DNA of 34,828 nt from an uncultured Candidatus Peribacteria bacterium. GTDB lineage: Bacteria > Patescibacteriota > Gracilibacteria > Peribacterales > Peribacteraceae. A program made the translations under genes and the position numbers. A model generated the notes under the pieces. The model had not been told where the DNA came from. It saw nothing but the letters and a program-made list of their open reading frames with translations, and ran no database searches. The stretch's first letter is position 1. Each line of letters begins with the position of its first letter. Shown piece after piece: positions 4,842 to 26,740 of the stretch. The stretch lies in NCBI GenBank assembly GCA_964558895.1, contig CAZLFU010000003.1, forward strand, positions 1 to 34,828, in the 5' to 3' direction.

Positions 4842-6074
4842 ATGGTTTCAAATACACCAGAAACACCAGACGCCAATACAGAAAAAAAAGATTCTGGCTT
4901 GAGGCCTGTTTTTGATCCAGCTGAAAAAGCCGCAGATGCTCAAGCAGAATCCGAAAAAGCAATAAAGGCTGCCAAAGGAGAAGAAGTTGATGACGAGCCA
5001 GGAAGCAAGATTAATGGAACAGAAATTATTATTGCTGCCGGAGAGAGAATTTCCCCTGAGGTAAAGACACTCTACGATTTTGCGATAGGAAAAATGAGGC
5101 CAGAAGAAAAAGAAGACTTGGGAGATTTTTTCTATGGATGGCAGGAGAACATAAATGGTGTAAAAAAAGCCTTTACGCAAAGACTCCAAAATAAAATAGA
5201 CGGAAAGGAAGAGGCAAAAGAGGAAGAAAAAGAATCTCAAGCAACATCCGATGGTCCAGTGGCAGAAATTCAAACAAAAGCAGCTCAATCTATTGCCCTT
5301 ACTGTGAATCGATTTGCGAACGATGCTAATGGGAAAGATCCTTCCGAGGGCAAAAGTGATGCAAGTAGGTTATGGGAAGAAACGAGAGCCAAGGCTCAGG
5401 CGGACTTTGAGTTGAAGGCACCATTTAAACAATTGGATGCAGAGGAAAAATTCTTTGATCTGCTTTCTGTTAAATTTATGATGGAAATTGAGGGAATGAA
5501 ATCTCTTGCTATGGCAGAACCAGATGAATTTGCAGATCTCCAAAGCGAGCTTGATAGAAAAGGAATCAGTCTACAAGACGAGATTGATGCGCTTTCTTCT
5601 GAGAATCTTTTGAGGGAGGCAGAAGATCTGGAGACAAGACATACACTTCCAATTATTATCCAATTTACCAATGCAGAAGATGGGTCAGTCATGCACCAGC
5701 CAGGTGGTTTGGCAGCTCTTGCTAAGGATGGAAAACTCAAATGCTTGCTAGAAATGAAGAATGCAGAAGATGCACAAACGGTGTATCAGATTATTAAAAA
5801 TCACGATGGATTGCCTGCGTTTGAGGCACCAAAAGTAACCGAGAAAAAGAAGGATGATAAAAAAGACTCTCAAGAAGAGGACAAGACTAAGGAGCAAAAA
5901 GAAGACGAAAAGAAGAAAGGAGCCGAAGATACAAAGACGAAAGAAGCAGATGAGGAAATAGACGATACGATGATCAAGTTTACAACACCTTTTTCTGTGC
6001 AGCAGGCACGTAGACTTGTGAGAATCTTGTATTGCTCACCTATTGGAGTCTACCAGGATCCACGGAAGCAGTAG
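4842..6074 (+). CDS. Hypothetical acidic, Lys/Glu-rich protein (410 aa)
   Basis: Long ORF. I prefer the ATG at 4842 (MVSNTPETPD) because the track start at 4713 overlaps the mfd 3' end. No signal peptide or recognisable motif. KE-rich tracts. Confidence 0.6.
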   Translation: MVSNTPETPDANTEKKDSGLRPVFDPAEKAADAQAESEKAIKAAKGEEVDDEPGSKINGTEIIIAAGERISPEVKTLYDFAIGKMRPEEKEDLGDFFYGWQENINGVKKAFTQRLQNKIDGKEEAKEEEKESQATSDGPVAEIQTKAAQSIALTVNRFANDANGKDPSEGKSDASRLWEETRAKAQADFELKAPFKQLDAEEKFFDLLSVKFMMEIEGMKSLAMAEPDEFADLQSELDRKGISLQDEIDALSSENLLREAEDLETRHTLPIIIQFTNAEDGSVMHQPGGLAALAKDGKLKCLLEMKNAEDAQTVYQIIKNHDGLPAFEAPKVTEKKKDDKKDSQEEDKTKEQKEDEKKKGAEDTKTKEADEEIDDTMIKFTTPFSVQQARRLVRILYCSPIGVYQDPRKQ

Positions 6075-6165: not shown

Positions 6166-6543
6166 ATGACACAACAACTTACAGCAGTGGAAGAAGCTCT
6201 GGGGTTTCGTATCCCAACAGGCAAGGAGATCTACGATCACCTGATGGGTGATATAGAACCCGAACTTGTGACAGATACCATTCCAGCGTTGGATGAAAAA
6301 TACAAAGATGAAACAGAGGAGCAAAAAGAAAAAAGGAAGCAACGTTACAAAGCGGCATTCGATGCCTATCACAAAGCTTTTGATACGTGGATTGCGAACT
6401 TACGAACACAGGTAGATAAAGTTCGTAAGACGGCTTTGCGAGCTGCAGAAGAGAAGTCCTTCGAAAAGGAGGCAGAAATTTTGGCACAAATTGAATCTTC
6501 ATTTTCTACCTCTCACGAGGACCATTCCCCCTCTGTATCATGA
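6166..6543 (+). CDS. Hypothetical protein (125 aa)
   Basis: I prefer the ATG at 6166 (MTQQLTAVEE) because the track start at 6115 is a TTG. Its stop overlaps the next gene's start (ATGA at 6540-6543), which suggests translational coupling. Confidence 0.55.
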   Translation: MTQQLTAVEEALGFRIPTGKEIYDHLMGDIEPELVTDTIPALDEKYKDETEEQKEKRKQRYKAAFDAYHKAFDTWIANLRTQVDKVRKTALRAAEEKSFEKEAEILAQIESSFSTSHEDHSPSVS

Positions 6544-9500
6544 GATACACATATTCACACGCACAACGTTTTAAAGATGCAGAGCGTCGGTTGGTGTTTA
6601 TGAGCTTTGATGTGGGTGATGGTAGTACAAGTCGTAATTCAGATCCAATTCCAGATAATGAATCATTTAATGATGCAAATTCTGGAACAGAGATTCCAAA
6701 ATCGGAGGATATGTCAGTGGATAGCTGGGCAAAACATGAGCAGGAAGTAGCTGGCCAAAGAGCAAGAGAAGTAGCTGAGAGAGCGCGTAAATTGGCTGAA
6801 ATTCAGAAGGGTCCACCCCCTCCGTCAATGCCGGAATCCGCTCTACCAGAAAGCGTAGAGCCACTTACCGAAGAGCAGGTAGCCGATCTTCTTGAGAAGA
6901 AGTTTCGTGAGGCAGTAGACAGGCTCCACGCTGATCAGGATGGATATGAACAATTCACAATTGACTATGAGGTAGATGGTTTAAATGATTTTCTGAGCAC
7001 AATTCCAGACAGCACAAAAAACGGTGAGTATTTTGTAAATAGAATATATAATTTATTTGAAGAGTTTAATGATGGGACACAAATTGATTACGATGAGACA
7101 ACGCATAGGTTTAATGCAATGTATCCAGGGCCAAAACCAAGTAAGACTCCAGTAGCTACCCCTCCAGAAAGCGTAGAGCCACTTACTGAAGAGCAGCTTA
7201 TTAACAATATTATCGATAAATTTGGAGCATTATGTAACACAGTAAGTGGGGATGAAGTTCCGAGATTAAGTATTGATGCCGAGATTCAATTGTCAGGAAT
7301 AAATGAATTGGTTAATGGCCTCTCAGAGAATGCAAAAGATACGCTCAAAAAATATCAATTAATTGCAGGTTTTAGCGATGACACAATAATTTTTTACGAT
7401 CGTGCTTCTAACCAGTTTAGTTATTCCATTCCACGGGAAGCGCCATCTTCTAGTAGTCCGCGGCCTCTAGACGATAGCTCCACACAAGCACCGGATGTTG
7501 CGCAGAGTGGACCTCAAGAAAGAATTGAGTTGGCGAATGAATATGCTACAAACCTTCAAAAGAGAATGAATCAAATGAAGAGTAAGATTGAAATATCTAT
7601 CCTCGCTAGTACTCCAATTGGAAGGATTGTGAGTGATGGGCAATTTACTGCGAGGAATGGAGAAATATTTTTTAGCTCTTCTCAGGTGCAAGATATCAAT
7701 GCTATAGCCTATTCTATTGGTTATAAAACTAGCGGTAACGATCTTGTGCGAGGAGGGGATAGAATTGCAATGACGAATGGCAGTAAATACGAGATGCCAT
7801 TATATCTAGCGCTCGATTCGAACAGAAACAATTTGGAAGATCTCTACCAGGCGTCCATGCAGAGAATGGCTCAGTGGGAAAACCAGCTTCGTTCTGTTGG
7901 TAGCGTTACAGCTATCGAAGGATTTGATAAGACACATAATGTAGGAGATCGAACAGGGGAATTTAAGGATTTACAAAAAGATGAAGAATTGCAGGGAATT
8001 GCGACCAAGATAAAGAGTGGTCTCGATTCAGATCTTCTCAAAAAGACAGCGTTTGGTAATGCTATTGATGGAATTACTTTCCTCAAAGATGAGGAAGGAC
8101 ACTTCTACATGGAGTCAGAGAAGACACCTGCTTTCCAACACTTCTGCCAAGACCTGTGGAAAGGCCTTCCAATTTACTCAAGAAATGGAGAAGGGAAAAA
8201 TGGTACGTATGTTGTGGAATTGCAAGAATCCGATAAGCAAGCATTTATTGAAAGATTAGAATGGGTGAGCGCAGCATTCGGAGGGGAAAAATCAAGAGCA
8301 GGCATCTTTGGTGCTTTAGATAAGGATGCAAAAATTCCTGCAAAAAAGGCAGAAACCCCTGATGTTTCTGACGATACGATACTCAATGTAAATGCCGCAC
8401 CGGAGACAAAAGAGATTAATGAGCTTGTCGAGAAGTTGCAGAATATTTTGATTGAAATGAGAGCGGAAGTTCCAAATCAAGAAAATCTATTAATGTCTCC
8501 AATTGGACGTATTCTAAATTATAGCTCGTTCCAGGCGGTTGGTGGGAAAGTATATTTTCGATCAACAGCAACAAAAGAAATCCAAAAAGTTGCTACAACT
8601 ATCGGTTACACAATGGACGACAAAAAAAACCTAACTCCAAAAAACAACAAAGGAGCTATCACCTTTGTAGAAAAAGAAGGCGAACAAGAGGCGTACTATG
8701 ACGTACCATTCCATCTTGCCATGGGGGGCAAGGAGGATGCAGAGGGTAGTGCAATGATAGAGAGTGCAAAAAAAGTATTAGGAAAATGGGGAAGACTGTA
8801 CTCTGAGCATGTAAATACAATAGAGAACTTTGAAGAGGATATTGCTGTAATTAAACCCGATTATGACAAAATGCAATATGATAATGAGTTAATGAGCGAG
8901 TTTGATGCTCAGGTATTACATGATATGAATGGCAGTATCTATAAAGATACTGTTATTGGAAGAGCATTAAATGGTATACAAATTCGTTCTGATACAGAAA
9001 ATATTTATTTAGGCTCAAGAAAAACAGCGGAGTTCCAGCATTTCTATAGAGATGTATTGCAAAAAATGAATTTATCTATCCCACAAAAAGAGGAATCTGA
9101 ACTATCGCAAATATCTATTTTGCAAACAGAATCTACGCGTGGGGACTATTATGTGAAAATTCCAAAAGCGAATAGAAATCTCTTACTTGAGCAATTTAAA
9201 TTATGGAGAGCAATTCTTGTGTCAGAGGATCCTGAATCCTCTGAAGGGAAATCATCTATAGATATGGGTGTTGTGCAGAATATAGCATCTAAGTTGAAGC
9301 AATTGATAACTCAAGAAAATGATGATGAAGAGAGTATTATAGACGGACTTGCACAAATGCCTGTATTGGAATTAGAGTACGCACTCAATGACGCATCAGA
9401 GGTGAAAACAATTACCCTTGAAATATGGAATAAAATAAAAAGTGAAGATGTGGGTGCTAGGAGAGAGGGCCTACAGGAGTTGCTTGCTATTGTCAAAAAA

Positions 9501-9869
9501 CCTGAAGAACCAATAGGGGCGCCAGAAGCCACACCTGAAACTGAAGTGCAAGCTTGGGAGAGAATCGGTCGAGAATACATTGGTATAGAACCAGATGCAG
9601 AAGGTATCTATACTGTAAATAGATCGATGAAAGGAACCCCTATTCTTCTTCGCTTTAACCCAAAAAGTGGGTGGGAGTGGAATCCTAGTAAGATCCAATC
9701 CAACCCATATCCAGATCAATGGTATTCTCCAGAGCAACTTGAGGTGCCATGGTATGGTACATTTAGTCTTAATTACTTTGAAAGTAAGGCATCACCATCC
9801 GAGGAAAACCAGAAGCTTCTTAATTTATTGGCAGATTTGAATAGAGAAGCTAAGTCTTCTAGTCGATGA
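6540..9869 (+). CDS. Large hypothetical modular protein (1109 aa) with internal tandem duplications
   Basis: Uninterrupted 3.3-kb ORF. It contains two ~106-aa modules that each start ESVEPLTEEQ, and two ~300-aa modules that share SPIGRI...G.(I/V)(F/Y)F.S...IGY and T.(E/A)FQHF. No signal peptide. Confidence 0.7.
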   Translation: MRYTYSHAQRFKDAERRLVFMSFDVGDGSTSRNSDPIPDNESFNDANSGTEIPKSEDMSVDSWAKHEQEVAGQRAREVAERARKLAEIQKGPPPPSMPESALPESVEPLTEEQVADLLEKKFREAVDRLHADQDGYEQFTIDYEVDGLNDFLSTIPDSTKNGEYFVNRIYNLFEEFNDGTQIDYDETTHRFNAMYPGPKPSKTPVATPPESVEPLTEEQLINNIIDKFGALCNTVSGDEVPRLSIDAEIQLSGINELVNGLSENAKDTLKKYQLIAGFSDDTIIFYDRASNQFSYSIPREAPSSSSPRPLDDSSTQAPDVAQSGPQERIELANEYATNLQKRMNQMKSKIEISILASTPIGRIVSDGQFTARNGEIFFSSSQVQDINAIAYSIGYKTSGNDLVRGGDRIAMTNGSKYEMPLYLALDSNRNNLEDLYQASMQRMAQWENQLRSVGSVTAIEGFDKTHNVGDRTGEFKDLQKDEELQGIATKIKSGLDSDLLKKTAFGNAIDGITFLKDEEGHFYMESEKTPAFQHFCQDLWKGLPIYSRNGEGKNGTYVVELQESDKQAFIERLEWVSAAFGGEKSRAGIFGALDKDAKIPAKKAETPDVSDDTILNVNAAPETKEINELVEKLQNILIEMRAEVPNQENLLMSPIGRILNYSSFQAVGGKVYFRSTATKEIQKVATTIGYTMDDKKNLTPKNNKGAITFVEKEGEQEAYYDVPFHLAMGGKEDAEGSAMIESAKKVLGKWGRLYSEHVNTIENFEEDIAVIKPDYDKMQYDNELMSEFDAQVLHDMNGSIYKDTVIGRALNGIQIRSDTENIYLGSRKTAEFQHFYRDVLQKMNLSIPQKEESELSQISILQTESTRGDYYVKIPKANRNLLLEQFKLWRAILVSEDPESSEGKSSIDMGVVQNIASKLKQLITQENDDEESIIDGLAQMPVLELEYALNDASEVKTITLEIWNKIKSEDVGARREGLQELLAIVKKPEEPIGAPEATPETEVQAWERIGREYIGIEPDAEGIYTVNRSMKGTPILLRFNPKSGWEWNPSKIQSNPYPDQWYSPEQLEVPWYGTFSLNYFESKASPSEENQKLLNLLADLNREAKSSSR

Positions 9870-9882
9870 TAGTATCATCAAC

Positions 9883-9902
9883 TGGCCCCGTGGATGAGAC
9901 CC
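9883..9902 (-). repeat. Decayed copy of the tRNA-Leu 3' end (att-like remnant)
   Basis: tggccccgtggatgagaccc matches tggtgccgtgggtgggactc (tRNA 12197-12216) at 15 of 20 positions in the same orientation. Confidence 0.5.
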
Positions 9903-10053
9903 TCTTTGTCTCAATTTGACGACGCAAGATATTGCTCTCGCCTTTGTTTGCCTGCCTCAGGTGGAGCGGACTTCGGTAGGCAAGCAGGATACACTTCTCG
10001 TCTACATCATGGTTTACCATGAGTGAGCAGTTCGCGCACGAACTGCGAATCGA

Positions 10054-10077
10054 ATGGTAACAAGGGGGTTACTGAAT
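10054..10077 (-). repeat. 24-nt direct repeat, tRNA 3'-end-like (copy 1)
   Basis: atggtaacaagggggttactgaat is identical to 11179-11202. It can also form a small hairpin (gtaac/gttac). Confidence 0.8.
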
Positions 10078-10090
10078 GCGATATTTTCTA

Positions 10091-10096
10091 TAGGAT
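10091..10096 (+). promoter_or_regulatory. -10-like TAGGAT, 6 nt upstream of ATG
   Basis: The sequence reads taggat, then tgtttt, then ATG at 10103. Confidence 0.3.
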
Positions 10097-10102
10097 TGTT
10101 TT

Positions 10103-10735
10103 ATGGGATTAGAAGAGCATATTAAGCGCCTAAAAGAACTAGAAGCTCGCCATTTGGAGATCATTCAAAAGATGCTGGAGGCAGATGGCGGCAATGTAAG
10201 TCATATCGATCTGATAGGACTTGCTGCAATTAATAGATCTCTGTCTTTAACAAAAGCCTTCCTTTTAATGATTGAAACAAAAAATGCAATTGCAGGTATT
10301 CCACTAATTCGATTGCAGTTAGATAGTTTAATGAGATTCAACGCTTGCCGTTTTGTCGACGACACGAAGAATTTGATAGTTAATCTACTTGAAGATAAGC
10401 CTCTAAATAAAATTCAATCAAATGATGGCCAGCAACTCACTGATAAATATCTACACGAAAAACTTTCAGAATCTTATCCAGAGGCAACAAAATTTTATAA
10501 AATAACATCTGGATTTATTCATTTATCCGGAAGGCACGTTTTCGCGACAGTCGACAAAGTCGACGATAAAGAGAGAACCATTGATTTCAAATTCGATCAA
10601 AAAGAAATGGAATGGCAATCGCCTCACATAGAAGAAGCGGCAGGATGTTTTGTAGAAATTACTGAAGAGTTATTGGCTTTAGCAATCTCATATGTCCTAG
10701 CGAAGGACAAAATTGATATTACTGATTTGTACTAA
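10103..10735 (+). CDS. Hypothetical soluble, mostly helical protein (210 aa)
   Basis: Clean ORF inside the AT-rich island. No TM segment and no motif I recognise. Confidence 0.6.
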   Translation: MGLEEHIKRLKELEARHLEIIQKMLEADGGNVSHIDLIGLAAINRSLSLTKAFLLMIETKNAIAGIPLIRLQLDSLMRFNACRFVDDTKNLIVNLLEDKPLNKIQSNDGQQLTDKYLHEKLSESYPEATKFYKITSGFIHLSGRHVFATVDKVDDKERTIDFKFDQKEMEWQSPHIEEAAGCFVEITEELLALAISYVLAKDKIDITDLY

Positions 10736-10742
10736 ACCCTAT

Positions 10743-10763
10743 ATGGTAGCGTGGTGTTTACTG
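10743..10763 (-). repeat. Decayed tRNA 3'-end-like repeat
   Basis: atggtagcgtggtgtttactg matches the 24-nt repeat at 16 of 21 positions. The preceding taaaccctat resembles the sequence flanking 11179 and the flank of the tRNA. Confidence 0.5.
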
Positions 10764-10786
10764 CTTACTTCGTAGACATCATAAGC

Positions 10787-10792
10787 TAATAT
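10787..10792 (+). promoter_or_regulatory. -10-like TAATAT, 6 nt upstream of GTG start
   Basis: The sequence reads taatat, then ctaaca, then GTG at 10799. Confidence 0.35.
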
Positions 10793-10798
10793 CTAACA

Positions 10799-11164
10799 GT
10801 GAAGATTGATTTAACCTCAAAAAAATCAGAGGCCGATTGGATTAAGTCTGTTGATAAATTTTGGCTCACATTTACACCACATTTCTTTGAGTTAATCGAA
10901 TGGCTGATCGTTATTGGTCTTATTAAATATCTAAGTGAGAAATACGACTTATTAATTCTAAAAGTTATTCTTGGAATTTCTTACTTATTTCTTACTTTCT
11001 ATGTTTCGAGTGGTCTTTATTCAACAAAATTTCTTATAAGGAAAATGAAATCGCCAAGGTTAGAATTATTGATATCGTTATTGATCTCTACTCTATTTAT
11101 TTATATTTATATCAAAGTGAGCAGCCAATTAATTGAAGTAATTTCTCTATCCAATAAAACATAA
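10799..11164 (+). CDS. Small multi-pass membrane protein (121 aa, GTG start)
   Basis: Three or four hydrophobic segments (WLIVIGLI, LILKVILGISYLFLTFYVSSGL, LLISLLISTLFIYIYI). Very AT-rich. Confidence 0.5.
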   Translation: MKIDLTSKKSEADWIKSVDKFWLTFTPHFFELIEWLIVIGLIKYLSEKYDLLILKVILGISYLFLTFYVSSGLYSTKFLIRKMKSPRLELLISLLISTLFIYIYIKVSSQLIEVISLSNKT

Positions 11165-11178
11165 GTAGTAAACCCTTT

Positions 11179-11202
11179 ATGGTAACAAGGGGGTTACTGA
11201 AT
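11179..11202 (-). repeat. 24-nt direct repeat, tRNA 3'-end-like (copy 2)
   Basis: Identical to 10054-10077. It lies 15 nt after the stop of the 121-aa gene. Confidence 0.8.
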
Positions 11203-11230
11203 TCTATATTTTGCCCTGGGAGCTTACTGC

Positions 11231-12163
11231 CTAAACCGCATTTTGAATAAGTGGCCATTTGTTTTTCGCGTTTTCAAGATTAATAACTAATTTGCCGTCG
11301 ATGCGTTTTGTAGTATTTGCTGAAGAAATCCAGTAATCGAGTTGGATTTCCTTTTCCTCGGTTTGAAGAATGGCATCATGATAAATGAAGTGAAATCCTG
11401 TGCCGACTTTAAGTTCATCTATTTCTATGTAGATGTGACCTGGATGAACGCTATGTGAAAGCCATTTCTCCTTGGGCGGCTCTCCATCATAAGTGCCCCA
11501 GACAATGTCTTTTATGTGCTCTGCTGTCTCAAAACCCTTATACAGCATCGGTTTTTCAGGAGGAGAACATAATTCATTTATATGCTTGTAAAAGCGGAAC
11601 TTGCCTTCGGATTTTGAAGAGGCTGAAATATTTATAGTAATTTTACTGTCCATGAGTGATCCGTGATTATGAATGTAGCAATCAAAAAAATAGCAGTTGC
11701 GAACTTTTTCCCTGAATTCGGTAAGCTTTTTCTTATGCATCGGGACTGAATTCAAATAGTCTCGACATTGATCTTCGGAGGGCGCTATTTGGACAAATTT
11801 TAGCATTTGTTCAGGAGAATATTTTTCAAGCCACTCACCCCATTGCTTTAGAGCTGTTTCTGCCTGAGCAATATCTTCATCGGAAATCTCATATGATTCA
11901 CCGATATAGTCAAAATTTATTTTTCTTACCTCAGATGTGACTCTGTGATCAACAGGGTTTCTGTATTCTCTTGACCAAATCCTGTAGCAAGAAAATAGAA
12001 GAGCACAAAGCACGTACCATCTCATTACGACCATCTCGTATGCTTCTGGAATTGCTGGCGCTACTTTCGCAGTTGCAAGAGCTATGTATGCAAGAAAGAT
12101 TCCACCTGTGAGCCAAGTCGTCCATTCCGTAACTAAACGCCAAAGAAAAACGAAGAATTTCAT
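11231..12163 (-). CDS. Hypothetical membrane-anchored protein (310 aa)
   Basis: The N-terminus has about three TM helices (FVFLWRLV, LTGGIFLAYIALA, WYVLCALLFSCY) followed by a ~230-aa soluble domain. TAAAGT (12170-12175) lies 6 nt upstream of the ATG. Confidence 0.65.
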   Translation of the reverse strand: MKFFVFLWRLVTEWTTWLTGGIFLAYIALATAKVAPAIPEAYEMVVMRWYVLCALLFSCYRIWSREYRNPVDHRVTSEVRKINFDYIGESYEISDEDIAQAETALKQWGEWLEKYSPEQMLKFVQIAPSEDQCRDYLNSVPMHKKKLTEFREKVRNCYFFDCYIHNHGSLMDSKITINISASSKSEGKFRFYKHINELCSPPEKPMLYKGFETAEHIKDIVWGTYDGEPPKEKWLSHSVHPGHIYIEIDELKVGTGFHFIYHDAILQTEEKEIQLDYWISSANTTKRIDGKLVINLENAKNKWPLIQNAV

Positions 12164-12196
12164 GGTTACACTTTAGCCGATTTAGAAACCCATATA

Positions 12197-12281
12197 TGGT
12201 GCCGTGGGTGGGACTCGAACCCACAAGTCTTGCGACACTAGTTCCTAAGACTAGCGCGTATACCAATTCCGCCACCACGGC
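12197..12281 (-). tRNA. tRNA-Leu, anticodon UAG, class II with long variable arm, CCA encoded
   Basis: The reverse complement folds by hand. Acceptor GCCGTGG/CCACGGC. Anticodon arm CTAGT-CTTAGGA-ACTAG. Variable arm TGTCGCAAGACTT. T arm GTGGG-TTCGAGT-CCCAC. It ends ACCA. Confidence 0.9.
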
Positions 12282-12402
12282 ATGTCGCTCGTGAGCGACG
12301 TGCTAAAGCTTTTTGCCATAGCAGTCACTTTCACAAAGATCAGAAGCAGAGAGTAGCACACCAAAAAGGCTTACTACCACCGTATTCCAAAGATAATTAT
12401 CT

Positions 12403-15556: not shown

Positions 15557-15946
15557 TTAATCTGGCAATCGCTCATTTGTATATTTAATGAGGGAATTTA
15601 TGTCCTTTGGGAGTAACTGTAACTGTTGATAAGTGTAATTATATTCCTCAGTAGTAAGTAAATTGCGTATTCTTGCTTTTTCATTCCAATCAAGAGCTTC
15701 TCTTACAGAAGCGGCACTGTATCTATAGAATTTGATTCGGTCTCTTTTGCCATATCGACCAAATCCTTCTGCGATGTTTGCCGAAATAGAATCAACCGAT
15801 CGAACAAATTGCTTACCAACTGTGTCTTTTGCAAGCCAATCCCACGAAAGCACGATATTCCACACTTCATTGGAAAGGTGAAAGGCAATGCGATAAGAGC
15901 TTATTTGATTAAGTTGCATGTACTGCATAGCAGACCAAAATATCAC
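15557..15946 (-). CDS. Four-helix-bundle protein (23S rRNA intervening-sequence protein family)
   Basis: Family-typical core: VRSVDSISANIAEGFGRYGKRDRIKFYRYSAASVREALDW. The true start is uncertain (GTG at 15946, ATG at 15928 or 15919). Confidence 0.75.
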   Translation of the reverse strand: MIFWSAMQYMQLNQISSYRIAFHLSNEVWNIVLSWDWLAKDTVGKQFVRSVDSISANIAEGFGRYGKRDRIKFYRYSAASVREALDWNEKARIRNLLTTEEYNYTYQQLQLLPKDINSLIKYTNERLPD

Positions 15947-22749: not shown

Positions 22750-24264
22750 CTAGAGACCTGCATCTATTTTGCAGGCTTCGTGAGCATTGCCACTGTAGAG
22801 ATAATCTCCACTGGTGTACGGGAAACAGTTGTCCGATTCTAGAATTTTGAGCAGTGTATCGAGTTTTTCATTACAGGGTCTGTAGAGACATGAGCGCCTG
22901 AGGAAAAATGTATAGTCTATGGCAAACCCACGAACACTTGTTCCTTTCTCGCTGGCTAACTTTGCAAATTGGAACATCGCCTTGCGCAGTTGCGCAGAAA
23001 ACACATTACGAATTTGATACGTTGCATCTGTGCCTTTTGCGATAAATGCAGCTTCTGCTGCACCCTGCGCGGTTGTGAATTCTTGGTATGCTTTTTTTCC
23101 TTCTGATGTTTCTTCCCATAGTGTTACTGTGGGGGAGGTAGGAATCTTACGTTCTATTCCCCAATGTTGCTTGAGGCTCAATAAATTTTCTAAGATTCCA
23201 AGTTGATTCTTTTCGTACGAGAATGGCCCTCGTAGTGCAGCTTTGGTTCCCCCTAATGCATAAATAATATTTGGATCTACTGGGCCAGTTGTAACCTGCC
23301 CATTTGGTTCATGACGAGCTTCGCATCCAAACACCACTTTACGTGGAATAGTTGCAAAGGAAGAAATGGCAGCAGACGGAGCACCTACAATAGAACTCGT
23401 ATTGTTGATCGTGTTTGCTATTTCGGCAAGAAAGTCATCCCTCCAATCCATAAATGCTTCCAACCCGGCAATCTCTTCGTTCGTTGATACATTTGGTCCT
23501 CCTTTGTATGGGAGAAGAACATCCAAGGTGCAACCCAAACCAGCATTGGTAGGCGGAAGATAATCGGAATGGAATGGGCATAGAGCCTCTGGTGTCTCAA
23601 TAACTGGTATGACACCATTGCATCCAGGGCAACAAAAATTCATGCAGGACGCTTCACCAGCATACGATCGACCAAATGCAAGACGCGTGCAAGCTTGTGC
23701 AGAATCATACAACTCGCAGGCATTTCCAATATTTGCACAACACCAAACAGATTGATCTGGATCGAAACTTCGGGGAATTTGCCATCCTTCATCAACATAG
23801 AGAGGATCTAGACCTCCACGGAACAAGCTCTCGTATCGTTCATTGAGGAAGGTGAGTAAATCTTGCAATTTTAAGATCCCGACGGAAGACCCTTGAGAAT
23901 ATGCCTCTTGCATTTTGCAGCGTACCCTCTGCATTTCTGCCTCGATCAAAGCGAGATCTAAATGCATACATGCGGTGAGATCTAAATCCCGTTCCTGTGC
24001 AGTAATGCGTAACTTTGTATCTAGTAAGCTATTCATGGCCACCCCCATTTTCGTGAGCCAGAACAAATAATTCGTATTTGGATCAAATCCTGGAAGAGTA
24101 CTTTGGGCATTTTGAATTCCAGCTTCAGCTCGGTTGAGTACTTGCTGTGTGTAGTGCGAAGAAATAGGTGCTAAAGCGAGAATAGCAGGATCCTCACATG
24201 CATATGCTTCTACTTGTTGAGGTAGGAAGAGCAAGAAGCCGAGAAAAGAGAATACTGAAAGCAT
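22750..24264 (-). CDS. Secreted cysteine-rich hypothetical protein (504 aa)
   Basis: I prefer the ATG at 24264, which exposes the signal peptide MLSVFSFLGFLLFLPQQVEAYA. The upstream 146 codons of the track ORF overlap the preceding gene. It has Cys clusters (WCCANIGNACELY, CMNFCCPGCNG). Confidence 0.7.
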   Translation of the reverse strand: MLSVFSFLGFLLFLPQQVEAYACEDPAILALAPISSHYTQQVLNRAEAGIQNAQSTLPGFDPNTNYLFWLTKMGVAMNSLLDTKLRITAQERDLDLTACMHLDLALIEAEMQRVRCKMQEAYSQGSSVGILKLQDLLTFLNERYESLFRGGLDPLYVDEGWQIPRSFDPDQSVWCCANIGNACELYDSAQACTRLAFGRSYAGEASCMNFCCPGCNGVIPVIETPEALCPFHSDYLPPTNAGLGCTLDVLLPYKGGPNVSTNEEIAGLEAFMDWRDDFLAEIANTINNTSSIVGAPSAAISSFATIPRKVVFGCEARHEPNGQVTTGPVDPNIIYALGGTKAALRGPFSYEKNQLGILENLLSLKQHWGIERKIPTSPTVTLWEETSEGKKAYQEFTTAQGAAEAAFIAKGTDATYQIRNVFSAQLRKAMFQFAKLASEKGTSVRGFAIDYTFFLRRSCLYRPCNEKLDTLLKILESDNCFPYTSGDYLYSGNAHEACKIDAGL

Positions 24265-24265
24265 A

Positions 24266-26740
24266 TTATTCAAATCCACGAGGGCACATCTGGGAAGGAA
24301 GGCGAACGTTGGAAATTCCAGAGAGGATCGTATTTGCATTTTCGATGAGTTCGGCCAGCGTCCTACCAGGGTAGAGAAGATAATTTGCATAGAGTTCTGT
24401 GCCAATTTTTGTGGCAATCCCCTGCGATAGCTTTTGTGTATTGAAGGCAGGTTCTGCGTACTCAACTTGTTGGTCGAGTAGGCTTTGTGCGGTTGCAATA
24501 TCGAGCCCCTTTGGCGCATCAAACGCGCGCGAGTTTTCGAATGCACAAAGCACTGGTGGTGTTTTAGCAGGCAAGCCATTTGTCTGACAAATTGCGAGAT
24601 CCATTTGTTCCATAAGCCATTTAGGAGTGTACGGTGGAAATCGTGTAGATGGTCGCCTTGGTATTGTGAGAATTTCTCCAATGACGGGGTCTGGTTTGAC
24701 ATCTGAATCTTTTTCGAAAGATTGATCTTGAGAAACGATTGCCATTCTGCCGGGGATAATTCTTTCGTGTTCTATGGATTGCTCTATACATTGCCCTATG
24801 TAGCACAGGTTATTTCCAATCGTGTTTTCGTACGTAGCCTGACATTCGGGAGAGCAGATCATAGGGAGTGAATTGATCATTTTTTTCGCGCGCCCATCCA
24901 TATTGTTGATAGCGTCTTCGCAGGAGAGATTTACGCCCAACTCATTCGCGTACGTTTCTGTAAACTGGAAGATCATTGCGTTGATTGTATTCAACTCATC
25001 CACAGAAACTGAGGGTGTGCAAATCATCGATGTTATATTTCCTACACGATCTGTTGGTGCACATGAATTATTTGAAAGAATGCTGCTGCATACTTCGATA
25101 TCTATGCCTAATGTAGGGAGGACACCATCTTCTGCTAGTGCAGCACACTGCGCATGATATGCCTCTCGCTCGTTGGCACAACACTGTTCTGTACCAGTGA
25201 ACATCGTATCAAATGTGTTCTGACCGGGTGGTTGACCACACAATTGCTGTGCGTGAACCAATTCATGAATGAGAACATAATCTGCAAATCCCGCTTCTCC
25301 TAATTCGTTAGGAATACATATTTCTATGACTCCATTATCATTTTTCGGGTTTGTTATCGCAAGCCGCGTTCCCCTTCCACAATTATCCGCACAGTAAATG
25401 TCTACTGCACAGTTGCTACATTCATTTGGCTCAATAGCAGGACTTCCATCAGAGCCATCTTGCTTTTCTGGTGTGTCAGGAACTGTTGAGATGTACGGAT
25501 CAGTTCTCCATCCTCCAATTTCACATATGTCTGTTCCAAATGTTGTATCTGCAACGTAGGAATCGAATAATTGAGGTTCGCAGGATGTGAGTGTTATGGT
25601 GTTTGGCTCGTCATCACTACTTGAACCTCCTCCTATATCAGTACTTTCTCTGCAATCAGAAGAGCGGATAGACCTACAAAGATATCCTCTTTGTCCAAAG
25701 AAATGTGAGCATATACCTTCATTGAGACCAGGTTCTGGTGGTGGATCTGGGTATTTTCCACCAAGAATTGCACCATTCACACACTCTGGTGGCGCGGCGC
25801 TTGAGTTGGAACAATCTAAGGAGGGCAACACTGGTTCTAGTGGCAGACCCCATTGTAGGCCTACATCTTTTTGACTTGCCCACACACTCACATTGAGATC
25901 TGGAAAAGTATAAATTGGGAATATGACATGTTCATTGCGAGTAAGTGGTGGATCGAATGTCATTTGTTGAATTTCTTGTAGTATAGCTTCGAGTGCATTT
26001 TCTACGTCGCACCATCGCATGCGCAGTGTTTGTAGTTCTGTTCCGTCGCCCAGGCTGTTACTAGGGTCACAAGCACCATTGTAATATAGTATCGATTCAA
26101 ATCCGTGACGGTAACGCCACACAGCTGCCGTAAACTCTTCGCCATCATTAAGAGTGTCATTATTTTGAAGCCCTCGAAGGCTCGCACGTAGGTCAGCTAG
26201 TGGACCACTACCATTTGTAACGGTATCAGGAAATGAAGCGCCTCTTAGTTGGGTTTCTATAATTGGGCTTTGAAGTTTATCCGTGTCGGATTGCCATATC
26301 TTGATAATACTTGGCATGCGAGTTGCTACATTTATTTTTCTGCCAGGATATCCATCAATTCCCAATTCGTAACTACTGGCAATTATTTGTAGATCTCTTC
26401 CGAGAGCACGTATCCAATTTGTGCCATTTGCTATAGATGTGATTTCGCTTGTCAGAGCATCGCAATCATTCCATGTGAGAGGATATGGGTCGTATGATTT
26501 TCCCGCGCAGAGACTGTTTACATCTTGTCGTACTGCCCTATTAACATCTTCCTCTACTACTTTCCATTTTGCGGGCATAGCATTTTTTACAAATCGTTTT
26601 ACCACCGGCTCAACTTTTGAATTGGTGTAGTATTCTTGAAGTGTAATTTTTTGCATACGCTCGTAGAGTGAGTCGTCATTTGCTATGACGCTGTGAGGTG
26701 CAACAAGAAGAAGGCCGATAATTATGGTTGAGGATCGCAT
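24266..26740 (-). CDS. Secreted cysteine-rich protein with HExxH zincin motif (824 aa)
   Basis: Signal peptide MRSSTIIIGLLLVAPHSVIAND. The motif YVLIHELVHAQQLCG lies at 25253-25267. Many Cys residues. Confidence 0.75.
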   Translation of the reverse strand: MRSSTIIIGLLLVAPHSVIANDDSLYERMQKITLQEYYTNSKVEPVVKRFVKNAMPAKWKVVEEDVNRAVRQDVNSLCAGKSYDPYPLTWNDCDALTSEITSIANGTNWIRALGRDLQIIASSYELGIDGYPGRKINVATRMPSIIKIWQSDTDKLQSPIIETQLRGASFPDTVTNGSGPLADLRASLRGLQNNDTLNDGEEFTAAVWRYRHGFESILYYNGACDPSNSLGDGTELQTLRMRWCDVENALEAILQEIQQMTFDPPLTRNEHVIFPIYTFPDLNVSVWASQKDVGLQWGLPLEPVLPSLDCSNSSAAPPECVNGAILGGKYPDPPPEPGLNEGICSHFFGQRGYLCRSIRSSDCRESTDIGGGSSSDDEPNTITLTSCEPQLFDSYVADTTFGTDICEIGGWRTDPYISTVPDTPEKQDGSDGSPAIEPNECSNCAVDIYCADNCGRGTRLAITNPKNDNGVIEICIPNELGEAGFADYVLIHELVHAQQLCGQPPGQNTFDTMFTGTEQCCANEREAYHAQCAALAEDGVLPTLGIDIEVCSSILSNNSCAPTDRVGNITSMICTPSVSVDELNTINAMIFQFTETYANELGVNLSCEDAINNMDGRAKKMINSLPMICSPECQATYENTIGNNLCYIGQCIEQSIEHERIIPGRMAIVSQDQSFEKDSDVKPDPVIGEILTIPRRPSTRFPPYTPKWLMEQMDLAICQTNGLPAKTPPVLCAFENSRAFDAPKGLDIATAQSLLDQQVEYAEPAFNTQKLSQGIATKIGTELYANYLLYPGRTLAELIENANTILSGISNVRLPSQMCPRGFE

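Follow-up and report, generated by a model that had tools for sequence, protein, structure and literature searches.

The question raised by this locus is what separates an intact tRNA-Leu(UAG) gene from the next large open reading frame (ORF) in a 34,828-nucleotide stretch of contig CAZLFU010000003.1, which stems from an uncultured Candidatus Peribacteria bacterium and is called the window here. An earlier note, made from the letters alone, had described the interval as a 2.4-kb AT-rich island that is partitioned into cassettes by four decayed copies of the 3' end of the tRNA. We assign a probability of roughly 0.7 to the reading that the island consists of three mobile cassettes in tandem, each non-autonomous and with a single gene, located precisely between the terminal ACCA of the tRNA gene and a non-coding trailer termed D. 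The array with the cargo genes p310, p121 and p210 spans positions 10055-12196 (2,142 bp). Its features are listed below in the order in which they follow the tRNA; LE and RE denote the left and the right end of a cassette in this orientation.

12197-12281, minus strand: tRNA-Leu(UAG), intact, with gene-encoded CCA (ARAGORN; Rfam RF00005, 60.5 bits)
11180-12196, minus strand: cassette C, 1017 bp, oriented like the tRNA, cargo p310
about 12169-12196, minus strand: LE of cassette C, TATATGGGTTTCTAAATCGGCTAAAGTG
11231-12163, minus strand: p310, protein with an N-terminal membrane segment
11180-11211, minus strand: RE of cassette C, AAATATAGAATTCAGTAACCCCCTTGTTACCA
10744-11179, minus strand: cassette B, 436 bp, cargo p121, repeat family D1
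11165-11179, minus strand: LE of cassette B, TAAAGGGTTTACTAC
10799-11164, plus strand: p121, small and hydrophobic, reversed relative to the tRNA
10744-10771, minus strand: RE of cassette B, a variant, GAAGTAAGCAGTAAACACCACGCTACCA
10055-10743, minus strand: cassette A, 689 bp, cargo p210
10729-10743, minus strand: LE of cassette A, TATAGGGTTTAGTAC, overlapping the stop codon of p210
10103-10735, plus strand: p210, DUF5677-like, reversed relative to the tRNA
10055-10086, minus strand: RE of cassette A, AAATATCGCATTCAGTAACCCCCTTGTTACCA
9883-10054, minus strand: trailer D, non-coding, apparently tRNA-derived, with homologous trailers in loci L051, L054, L005, L102 and L096

ARAGORN and Rfam placed the tRNA gene where the earlier note had seen it, and an Rfam search of positions 9700-12400 at the gathering score and at E values up to 10 yielded nothing besides this tRNA. 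The two identical 24-mers reported before (10054-10077 and 11179-11202), for which zero occurrences are expected by chance, belong to a repeat of 34 nt with 94% identity (family D2). The copies of the tRNA end together with their flank (10729-10763, 11165-11199 and 12182-12216) are in register over 35 nt (family D1), the last one being the flank plus the 3' end of the tRNA itself. In tRNA orientation, all these repeats represent a junction of ...CAGTAACCCCCTTGTTACCA with TA(A/T)AGGGTTTA.... A probe of 43 nt, comprising the last 28 nt of the tRNA and 15 nt of trailer, was aligned to the island and gave Smith-Waterman scores of 28 for the copy at 10744 and 21 for that at 11180, which were reached, rank for rank, in 0 of 300 dinucleotide-preserving shuffles. 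The fourth copy (9883-9902) is indeed the best window match with 15/21 positions, but the background reaches 14/21, and with Smith-Waterman rank 4 the copy alone is not significant; it was rescued by comparison, as a homologous trailer in L096 ends at the same position in a 19/20 copy of the tRNA 3' end. The low GC content of the island (0.364 versus 0.427 for the window) was also confirmed, although the difference is modest and other 500-nt bins of the window are equally low.

The strongest bearing on the nature of these repeats comes from other loci, all of which are metagenome contigs. One exact-pattern scan of metagenome contigs (pattern GGTARCN{2,5}GGGGTTACTGAAT) and one of genome contigs were performed. 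The former yielded 10 loci, six of which share a 30-mer with hardly any variation, TGGTARCRAGGGGGTTACTGAATTCTATTT, on contigs with a GC content of 0.42-0.58. A tRNA-Leu(GAG) gene is located 0.7-0.9 kb away in five of the six true matches, with the same geometry as in the window. The conserved ends are an LE with the sequence TATA(T)GGGTTTCTAAATC and an RE of approximately 31 nt, AAATAGAATTCAGTAACCCCCTYGYTACCA. In tRNA orientation, the layout is a tRNA ending in ACCA, the LE TATAGGGTTT(C/A)TAAATC.., one ORF, the RE, and an unrelated flank. LE and RE directly after the ACCA of tRNA-Leu(GAG) enclose different cargo in each of L094 (identical to L100), L101 and L102, while L096 harbours a cassette with both ends behind a pseudo 3' end, and the RE alone was found in L093 and L083. 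Both ends of cassette C match the cassettes of L094, L096, L101 and L102. The cassettes elsewhere are 0.69-0.92 kb long and have a GC content of 0.36-0.42, compared with 0.45-0.58 for their host contigs, a contrast that argues for a foreign origin. Every copy with a readable far side adjoins a tRNA-Leu-like end. The comparative loci thus support the previously proposed hotspot at the 3' end of tRNA-Leu with discrete, tiny cargo modules.

Candidates rejected in these scans comprise the remaining four of the 10 loci, namely L095, L098 and L099, which represent a repetitive viral protein gene, and the chance match L097. A scan of viral contigs for the RE had its sole match in L092, again a repetitive viral protein gene, and the same contigs yielded six chance matches to the RE-LE junction pattern that were devoid of the rest of the RE. 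Only one chance match of 20 nt was obtained from the phage and plasmid collections.

The same loci require a different view of what the repeats are. When ten REs were aligned with 3' ends and pseudo-ends of tRNA-Leu, the RE fell in register with the part of the tRNA that comprises T-arm, acceptor and CCA, and the invariant columns were T, C, G and CCA. The sequence of the RE is maintained from host to host, and its exact agreement with each host tRNA is confined to ACCA. Three of the four copies therefore represent the conserved right end of a cassette family and not, as had been assumed, decaying duplicates of the local tRNA end, because the 30-mer is nearly identical across contigs with GC contents from 0.42 to 0.58 and differs from the tRNA 3' end of each host. 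Similarly, the motif aaaccc(t/a)(t/a)tatggt, formerly taken for a flank of the tRNA, turned out to be the conserved LE of the next cassette as seen on the opposite strand. As in islands that integrate into tRNA genes, the tRNA-Leu remains intact and its ACCA immediately precedes the joint, which holds for the window, L094, L100, L101 and L102.

Trailer D provides the outer border of the array. In tRNA orientation it begins with TTCGATTCGCAGTTCG..CTCATGGTAAACCA (10054 down to about 10006). Its other end is the pseudo 3' end GGGTCTCATCCACGGGGCCA (9883-9902), which a distance of 13 nt separates from the stop codon of p1109, the large ORF beyond D; the non-coding interval between the repeats covers 9903-10053. 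In L051 and L054, which are orthologous and linked to the gene of aspartyl-tRNA synthetase (AspRS), D directly follows tRNA-Leu(UAG). It is located after a 108-nt palindromic insert, itself ending in GCACCA, in L005, and after a second, degenerate cassette in L102. The tRNA of L096 is followed by TTCGACTCGCAGTTCG...CTCATGGCAAGCCA...., which is homologous to positions 10054 down to about 10006 of the window; this trailer ends after 82 nt in GGGTCTTCTCCTGGGCACCA, the 19/20 copy mentioned above, and the LE of a cassette comes directly next. The empty state is hence ACCA/TTCGA... (L051, L054), and the filled state is ACCA/cassettes/TTCGA..., with three cassettes in the window and two in L102. Within D of L054, 13 nt and 8 nt are identical to the T arm of its tRNA. 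Therefore, judged from these similarities, D looks like an old partial copy of tRNA-Leu that has become the standard, ancestral trailer of the locus. The ORF list agrees with the assertion of the earlier note that each interval between repeats holds one unit, except that the non-coding segment appears to be this trailer rather than captured cargo. The check it had suggested, a search for an empty site, succeeded insofar as L051 and L054 are unfilled, but the neighbour of the tRNA is D and not the 1109-aa gene, for which no homolog was detectable in any relative. The plus strand of D folds as RNA with a z-score of -2.67; a consensus fold of its 5' part has only two compensatory pairs among five sequences, too little for claiming a structured RNA.

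The cargo proteins are mutually dissimilar except for two pairs of homologs and comprise a HEPN-domain protein, membrane proteins and proteins without known function. With its HEPN, DUF5677-like and small membrane proteins, this cargo resembles that of integrons. It is oriented with the tRNA in the case of p310 and in L094, L096 and L102, and against it in the case of p121, p210, L101 and L093. The genes therefore presumably possess their own promoters. Searches of Pfam, NCBIfam, PHROGs and PADLOC with p210, p121, p310, p1109, p350 and p453 produced nothing usable.

A homolog of p210 with 74% identity in L083 is preceded by the same RE, and the homology starts exactly at TGGTA, a left boundary observed in three independent contexts including both copies in the window. 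The dN/dS ratio of this pair is 0.07, indicating purifying selection. More distant relatives of p210 are classical integron cassettes with attC on both sides (L086-L091, L103), one relative scores as DUF5677, an IntI-like integrase gene adjoins the relative in L086, and the relative in L084 is situated between palindromes resembling repetitive extragenic palindromes (REP) and beside a Y1 transposase. The occurrence of these relatives in integrons or next to a Y1 transposase therefore identifies the p210 family as mobile cargo. We also noted that the DUF5677-like relatives at positions 501-2400 of L086 and 1-1080 of L103 are first-position cassettes with GTTAGC/GTTAGGC attC boxes. The structure model of p210 is confident (pLDDT 81), and no PDB entry matched it with E < 0.1.

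The family of p310 is very small, with 6 representatives among 1.84 billion, and a look-up of the exact sequence gave no record. The homolog in L081 (58% identity) begins 32 nt after tRNA-Leu(CAG) in a region with a GC content of 0.356 versus 0.488 for the contig, and the pair is under purifying selection (pN 0.25 versus pS 0.79). A relative with 33% identity (P0010 in L112) follows tRNA-Asp at a distance of 315 nt, past short repeats with partial 3' ends of tRNA-Asp. Thus, relatives of p310 were encountered directly downstream of a tRNA gene in three of the three contexts with a visible tRNA (Leu-UAG, Leu-CAG and Asp-GTC). Positions 5686-5800 of L112 contain the tRNA-Asp(GTC) and two palindromic units that end in partial tRNA-Asp 3' ends, ..GGCCCGCCA and ..GTCCCGCCA; a small ORF-like stretch lies between these units and P0010, and a tRNA-like fragment is present upstream at about 5521-5560.

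Several observations weigh against the interpretation of the island as an array of mobile cassettes. We infer mobility from comparative anatomy only, having seen no recombinase, circle or excision junction. The RE family was recovered only eight times (six metagenome loci, L083 and the window), its motif occurs in 0 of 55 AspRS loci of Peribacteria and Peregrinibacteria as well as nowhere in the viral, phage and plasmid collections, and the other host contigs have no firm taxonomic assignment. Moreover, neither an LE nor an RE is recognisable at the p310 homolog of L081, and the inverted-repeat similarity between RE and LE is weak for each single cassette (p ~0.02-0.3), with the exception of cassette B.

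How might such cassettes move? The earlier statement that no integrase remains, so that any mobilisation would occur in trans, was borne out. No recombinase domain was found in the scanned ORFs of the 34.8-kb window, the island or the cassettes, and no recombinase or transposase domain was present beside cassettes in larger contigs. Phmmer searches seeded with a tyrosine recombinase and with a Y1 sequence hit nothing at the cassettes, and a Pfam analysis of 81 ORFs that lie behind tRNA-Leu in 31 loci included no recombinase among the 25 families listed. Because none lies in or beside them, the cassettes are presumably non-autonomous and moved in trans. In the mechanism we propose, a recombinase whose gene resides on a helper element or at another place in the genome would act on the cassettes in trans and read the positions common to the RE and tRNA-Leu 3' ends (..AGT....CC..G...CCA). 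The RE, approximately 28 nt of which resemble the target at fixed positions, imitates the T-arm and acceptor portion of tRNA-Leu and ends in the ACCA of the target. The tRNA is preserved because the joint falls at its very last bases, and each inserted cassette supplies a new tRNA-like ...ACCA end, which regenerates the target and allows further cassettes to stack. Such a regeneration explains the tandem arrays in the window and L102 as well as the insertion behind the pseudo-end of D in L096.

The joint invariably follows ACCA, in the window the last four bases of tRNA-Leu(UAG) (12197-12200), which represent the insertion point, and target and element are identical over those 4 nt only. RE (ATTCAGTAACCC) and LE (GGGTTTCTAAAT) constitute an imperfect, subterminal inverted repeat of 12-13 bp, matching at 10-11 of the 12-13 positions, with a spacer of 15-16 bp whose midpoint falls within ACCA. 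In cassette B, the RE and the reverse complement of the LE agree at 11/12 positions, which was attained by 4 of 2000 shuffles. Tyrosine recombinases need an identical overlap of 6-8 bp, while serine recombinases use a 2-bp crossover. The identity over 4 nt and the inverted repeat centred on ACCA therefore suggest a very short crossover and favour a serine-type enzyme over a classical tyrosine integrase. Most likely, the agent is a site-specific recombinase that works in trans and has a very short crossover; a transposase generating a 4-bp duplication is possible, and an integron-like or Y1 single-strand mechanism is unlikely.

Could the cassettes instead be relics of successive integrase-bearing tRNA islands that were whittled down by deletion, each cassette being the remainder between attL and attR? 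Short non-coding inserts ending in partial tRNA copies do follow tRNA-Leu in L001, L005, L023, L043 and L052, and similar inserts follow tRNA-Asp in L112, corresponding to the classical scar pattern of additive islands (10.1101/2020.12.28.424599). However, independent deletions would hardly leave, at least nine times, a single ORF between the same conserved LE of ~18-27 nt and RE of ~31 nt; the RE is conserved between hosts, in contrast to a displaced 3' end that matches its own tRNA, and integrase fragments were not found in the scanned ORFs. We therefore regard this origin as improbable.

A kinship with mobile insertion cassettes (MICs) or miniature inverted-repeat transposable elements (MITEs) appears doubtful as well. 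Under this reading, the ends would be inverted repeats of an insertion sequence (IS) family that is extremely selective for its target, the ACCA would have arisen as a 4-bp target duplication, and mobilisation would be due to a DDE transposase acting in trans. The imperfect inverted repeats are in line with this, as is the ACCA on both sides, which may be either such a duplication or a crossover core, and one passenger gene without a transposase is the anatomy of MICs (PMC3913671). The inverted repeats, however, are set back from the putative ends by 7 nt and 4-5 nt, TA...TT is atypical for termini, all copies reside at tRNA-Leu-like ends and are not dispersed, and a transposon end would have no need for ~28 nt that imitate the target. 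Furthermore, no cognate IS was found in the fetched loci, viral contigs, or phage or plasmid records, and the transposase-type ORFs seen (rve approximately 4 kb from the p310 relative in L110-L113, Y1 in L046 and L084) are not linked to LE or RE.

It is very improbable that the cassettes belong to a single-strand hairpin system, that is, an integron-like attC x attI reaction or a Y1 HUH transposase of the IS200/IS605 type cutting beside ACCA. Y1 elements such as IS608 enter on the 3' side of a particular tetranucleotide, with no duplication beyond it. The presence of ACCA before the LE and at the end of the RE without a longer duplication fits this behaviour; in addition, one-ORF arrays are integron-like, the p210 relatives are genuine integron cassettes, a Y1 transposase adjoins one of them, and L046 has an ORF resembling Y1 REP-associated tyrosine transposases (RAYTs) between AspRS and tRNA-Leu. 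Yet the single-stranded DNA hairpins of the RE-LE junctions were no better than shuffles (z -1.3 to +0.6), for which reason an attC-like fold of the repeats was dropped, and RYYYAAC/GTTRRRY boxes are absent. The sites measure ~50 nt and not 57-141 nt, the window contains no IntI, and the cargo is of mixed orientation. The RE cannot form the T-arm hairpin of the tRNA, and its resemblance to the tRNA therefore resides in sequence and not in fold. Finally, an absence of any mobility, with local duplications or signals for promoters, terminators or tRNA processing that resemble a tRNA end by chance, is hardly credible and already largely refuted: a -35/-10-like pair (TTACTG, 16 nt, TAGGAT/TAATAT) may be read into the RE that precedes p210 and also its homolog in L083, and a promoter scan located one promoter-like site (11182-11210), but shuffles contain more such sites, unrelated genes are enclosed by the same ends at different tRNA-Leu isoacceptors in different neighbourhoods, and there are both a GC contrast with the hosts and orthologous empty sites.

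Returning to the cassettes as mobile units, their relation to described elements has to be considered. No description of the LE/RE cassettes was found in literature searches, and the cassettes fail a defining feature of each known family that could be tested. Integron cassettes contain one ORF, are usually promoterless and all have the same orientation. Like integrons and clusters of attC sites lacking integron integrases (CALINs), the cassettes form single-ORF arrays with conserved sites at one attachment point, and the cargo is small and unknown or of the toxin/defence type. Unlike in integrons, a tRNA gene heads the array, there is no attI, and the scanned window ORFs have no Phage_integrase match; attC boxes and a stable attC fold are missing from the sites, the genuine attC of the p210 relatives look different, the crossover lies in the middle of the site with both cassette ends conserved, and the ORFs occur in both orientations.

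The streptococcal cis-mobilizable elements (CIMEs), which accrete at att sites, are bounded by such sites, are devoid of recombination genes and form tandems with related elements, whose integrase is believed to mobilise them; they are deletion derivatives of several kb with identifiable autonomous relatives. The cassettes are likewise att-bounded and without recombination genes, but they are single-gene units, and one metagenome scan revealed no autonomous relative. The pdif modules of Acinetobacter plasmids consist of 1-2 genes without a recombinase between 28-bp XerC/XerD sites of alternating orientation and rely on a host-encoded recombinase. Small size, the lack of a recombinase and short recombination sites are common to both, whereas the cassettes have direct repeats at a chromosomal tRNA gene. 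Compared with integrase-mediated islands in tRNA genes, the RE is tRNA-like and in register, yet it appears not to be a copy of the 3' segment of the host tRNA, with which it agrees exactly in ACCA only, and neither the cassettes nor the window encode a tyrosine or serine recombinase of their own.

Tycheposons of Prochlorococcus enter at tRNA 3' ends and push older elements outward, so that partial tRNA copies lie between them and remnants accumulate; they measure several kb and contain replication genes as well as a tyrosine or serine recombinase of their own (10.1101/2020.12.28.424599). The cassettes share the insertion at the 3' end of a specific tRNA and the tRNA-like sequences between stacked units. 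They differ in that the units are 0.4-1.0 kb long with one ORF and no recombinase and that the separator is a conserved element end. In Methanosarcina mazei, casposons are found at the very 3' end of tRNA-Leu and recognise ~30 bp of its 3' region; these archaeal elements encode Cas1 and PolB, have inverted-repeat ends and generate 14-bp target duplications (PMC6977970). The cassettes also target the last bases of a tRNA-Leu gene and have imperfect inverted-repeat ends, and no Cas1 was found in the window or the scanned ORFs of cassette loci. A casposon-like duplication of 14 bp was rejected, as the sequence after the RE differs from that after the tRNA in L094, L096, L101 and cassette A of the window, the 10 nt behind the tRNA not being repeated there. 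MIC231 and the MIC with qnrD (PMC3913671) have one passenger gene between inverted repeats, no transposase and mobilisation in trans; the cassettes resemble them in the single gene, the lack of a transposase, the imperfect inverted repeats and the presumed mobilisation in trans. MICs, however, have terminal repeats of known ISs, many sites and target duplications, whereas the cassettes occur only at tRNA-Leu-like ends. Moreover, one end of each cassette mimics the target, which distinguishes it from MICs.

The pattern extends beyond the LE/RE cassettes, since the interval between tRNA-Leu and p142 contains different, mostly unrelated genes in every relative, and partial tRNA 3' ends were found behind the short inserts at tRNA-Leu and tRNA-Asp described above. 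This matches the additive-island model of the tycheposons, though the units are single genes without recombinases. The partial tRNA-Leu 3' ends lie about 45-66 nt (L043) and 57-84 nt (L001) after the tRNA and have an acceptor strand unlike that of the resident tRNA (in L043, CCTGGGC versus CCTTGGC). These copies therefore derive from a different tRNA-Leu allele or genome. In addition, a palindrome-rich, non-coding insert of ~108 nt, CGTAAAGGCGC...CCACGTGG..., exactly follows the ACCA of tRNA-Leu in L005 (12963-13073) and also in L031 and L045; it is a second kind of small module at the same site. Positions 11760-12450 of L046 contain the Y1 (RAYT-like) transposase ORF, flanked by REP-like palindromes, between AspRS and an E/K-rich coiled-coil ORF, the latter occupying the slot of p350 in the window, just upstream of tRNA-Leu.

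A broader, still tentative proposal is that bacteria of the Peribacteria/Peregrinibacteria type might own an undescribed, integron-like platform for gene capture that uses the CCA end of tRNA-Leu and also tRNA-like pseudo-ends. A dedicated trans-acting recombinase, perhaps of a new family or specificity, would insert, stack and exchange single-gene cassettes whose conserved ends measure ~20 and 31 bp and of which one end mimics the tRNA. The hosts have small genomes, their relatives are known only as metagenome-assembled genomes, and the exchange of accessory genes among them is poorly understood. Through integrase-less single-gene cassettes that home to the last bases of tRNA-Leu, genes would flow within this lineage by a compact route, which would account for the differences seen behind tRNA-Leu in all relatives examined. 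The motifs of LE and RE and the empty site ACCA/TTCGA can serve as handles for mining further cassettes and for finding the recombinase by co-occurrence, and the highly specific, tRNA-sparing integration site might be tested as a tool. The DUF5677-like and HEPN families link two cassette systems, integrons and tRNA cassettes, through their cargo.

Regarding the surroundings of the array, its neighbours in the window are the housekeeping genes for DnaN, Mfd, AspRS, DnaE, SSB and MurB. AspRS shares 70-74% identity with that of metagenome-assembled genomes of Candidatus Peribacterales/Peribacteraceae, and relatives keep the order DnaE, p223, p148, AspRS and tRNA-Leu, followed by p142, Mfd and DnaN on the opposite strand. 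Therefore, the window is chromosomal DNA of a Peribacteria-type bacterium of the candidate phyla radiation (CPR). Directly 5' of tRNA-Leu(UAG), a GC-rich hairpin, GCACGTCGCTCACGAGCGACAT, is located at 12282-12304 and has a terminator-like score on the plus strand; the tRNA-Leu(GAG) of L102 has a nearly identical hairpin leader despite another upstream gene (FtsH, p350 in the window). Beyond the trailer, the array is followed by one further large ORF:

6540-9869: p1109, ORF of 1109 aa with an internal duplication

The motifs PESVEPLTEEQ and SPIGRI...IGY are each present twice in p1109. No match to it was obtained among 5.8 billion proteins, in a run that failed to list even the window's own copy, and no counterpart exists across 80 related loci; its convergent slot is filled by other ORFs of 500-720 aa in relatives. 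Similarly, p350 and p453 did not match their positional counterparts in relatives. On the minus strand, the ORFs 22750-24702 (650 aa) and 24266-26740 (824 aa), neither of which has a Pfam match, overlap by ~440 nt in different frames; a misplaced start, a frameshift or a true overlap may account for this. Lastly, a 129-aa ORF with a GC content of 0.356 (15557-15946) lies between the genes of AspRS and p148, where relatives mostly have a short spacer, and may be another small lineage-specific insertion.

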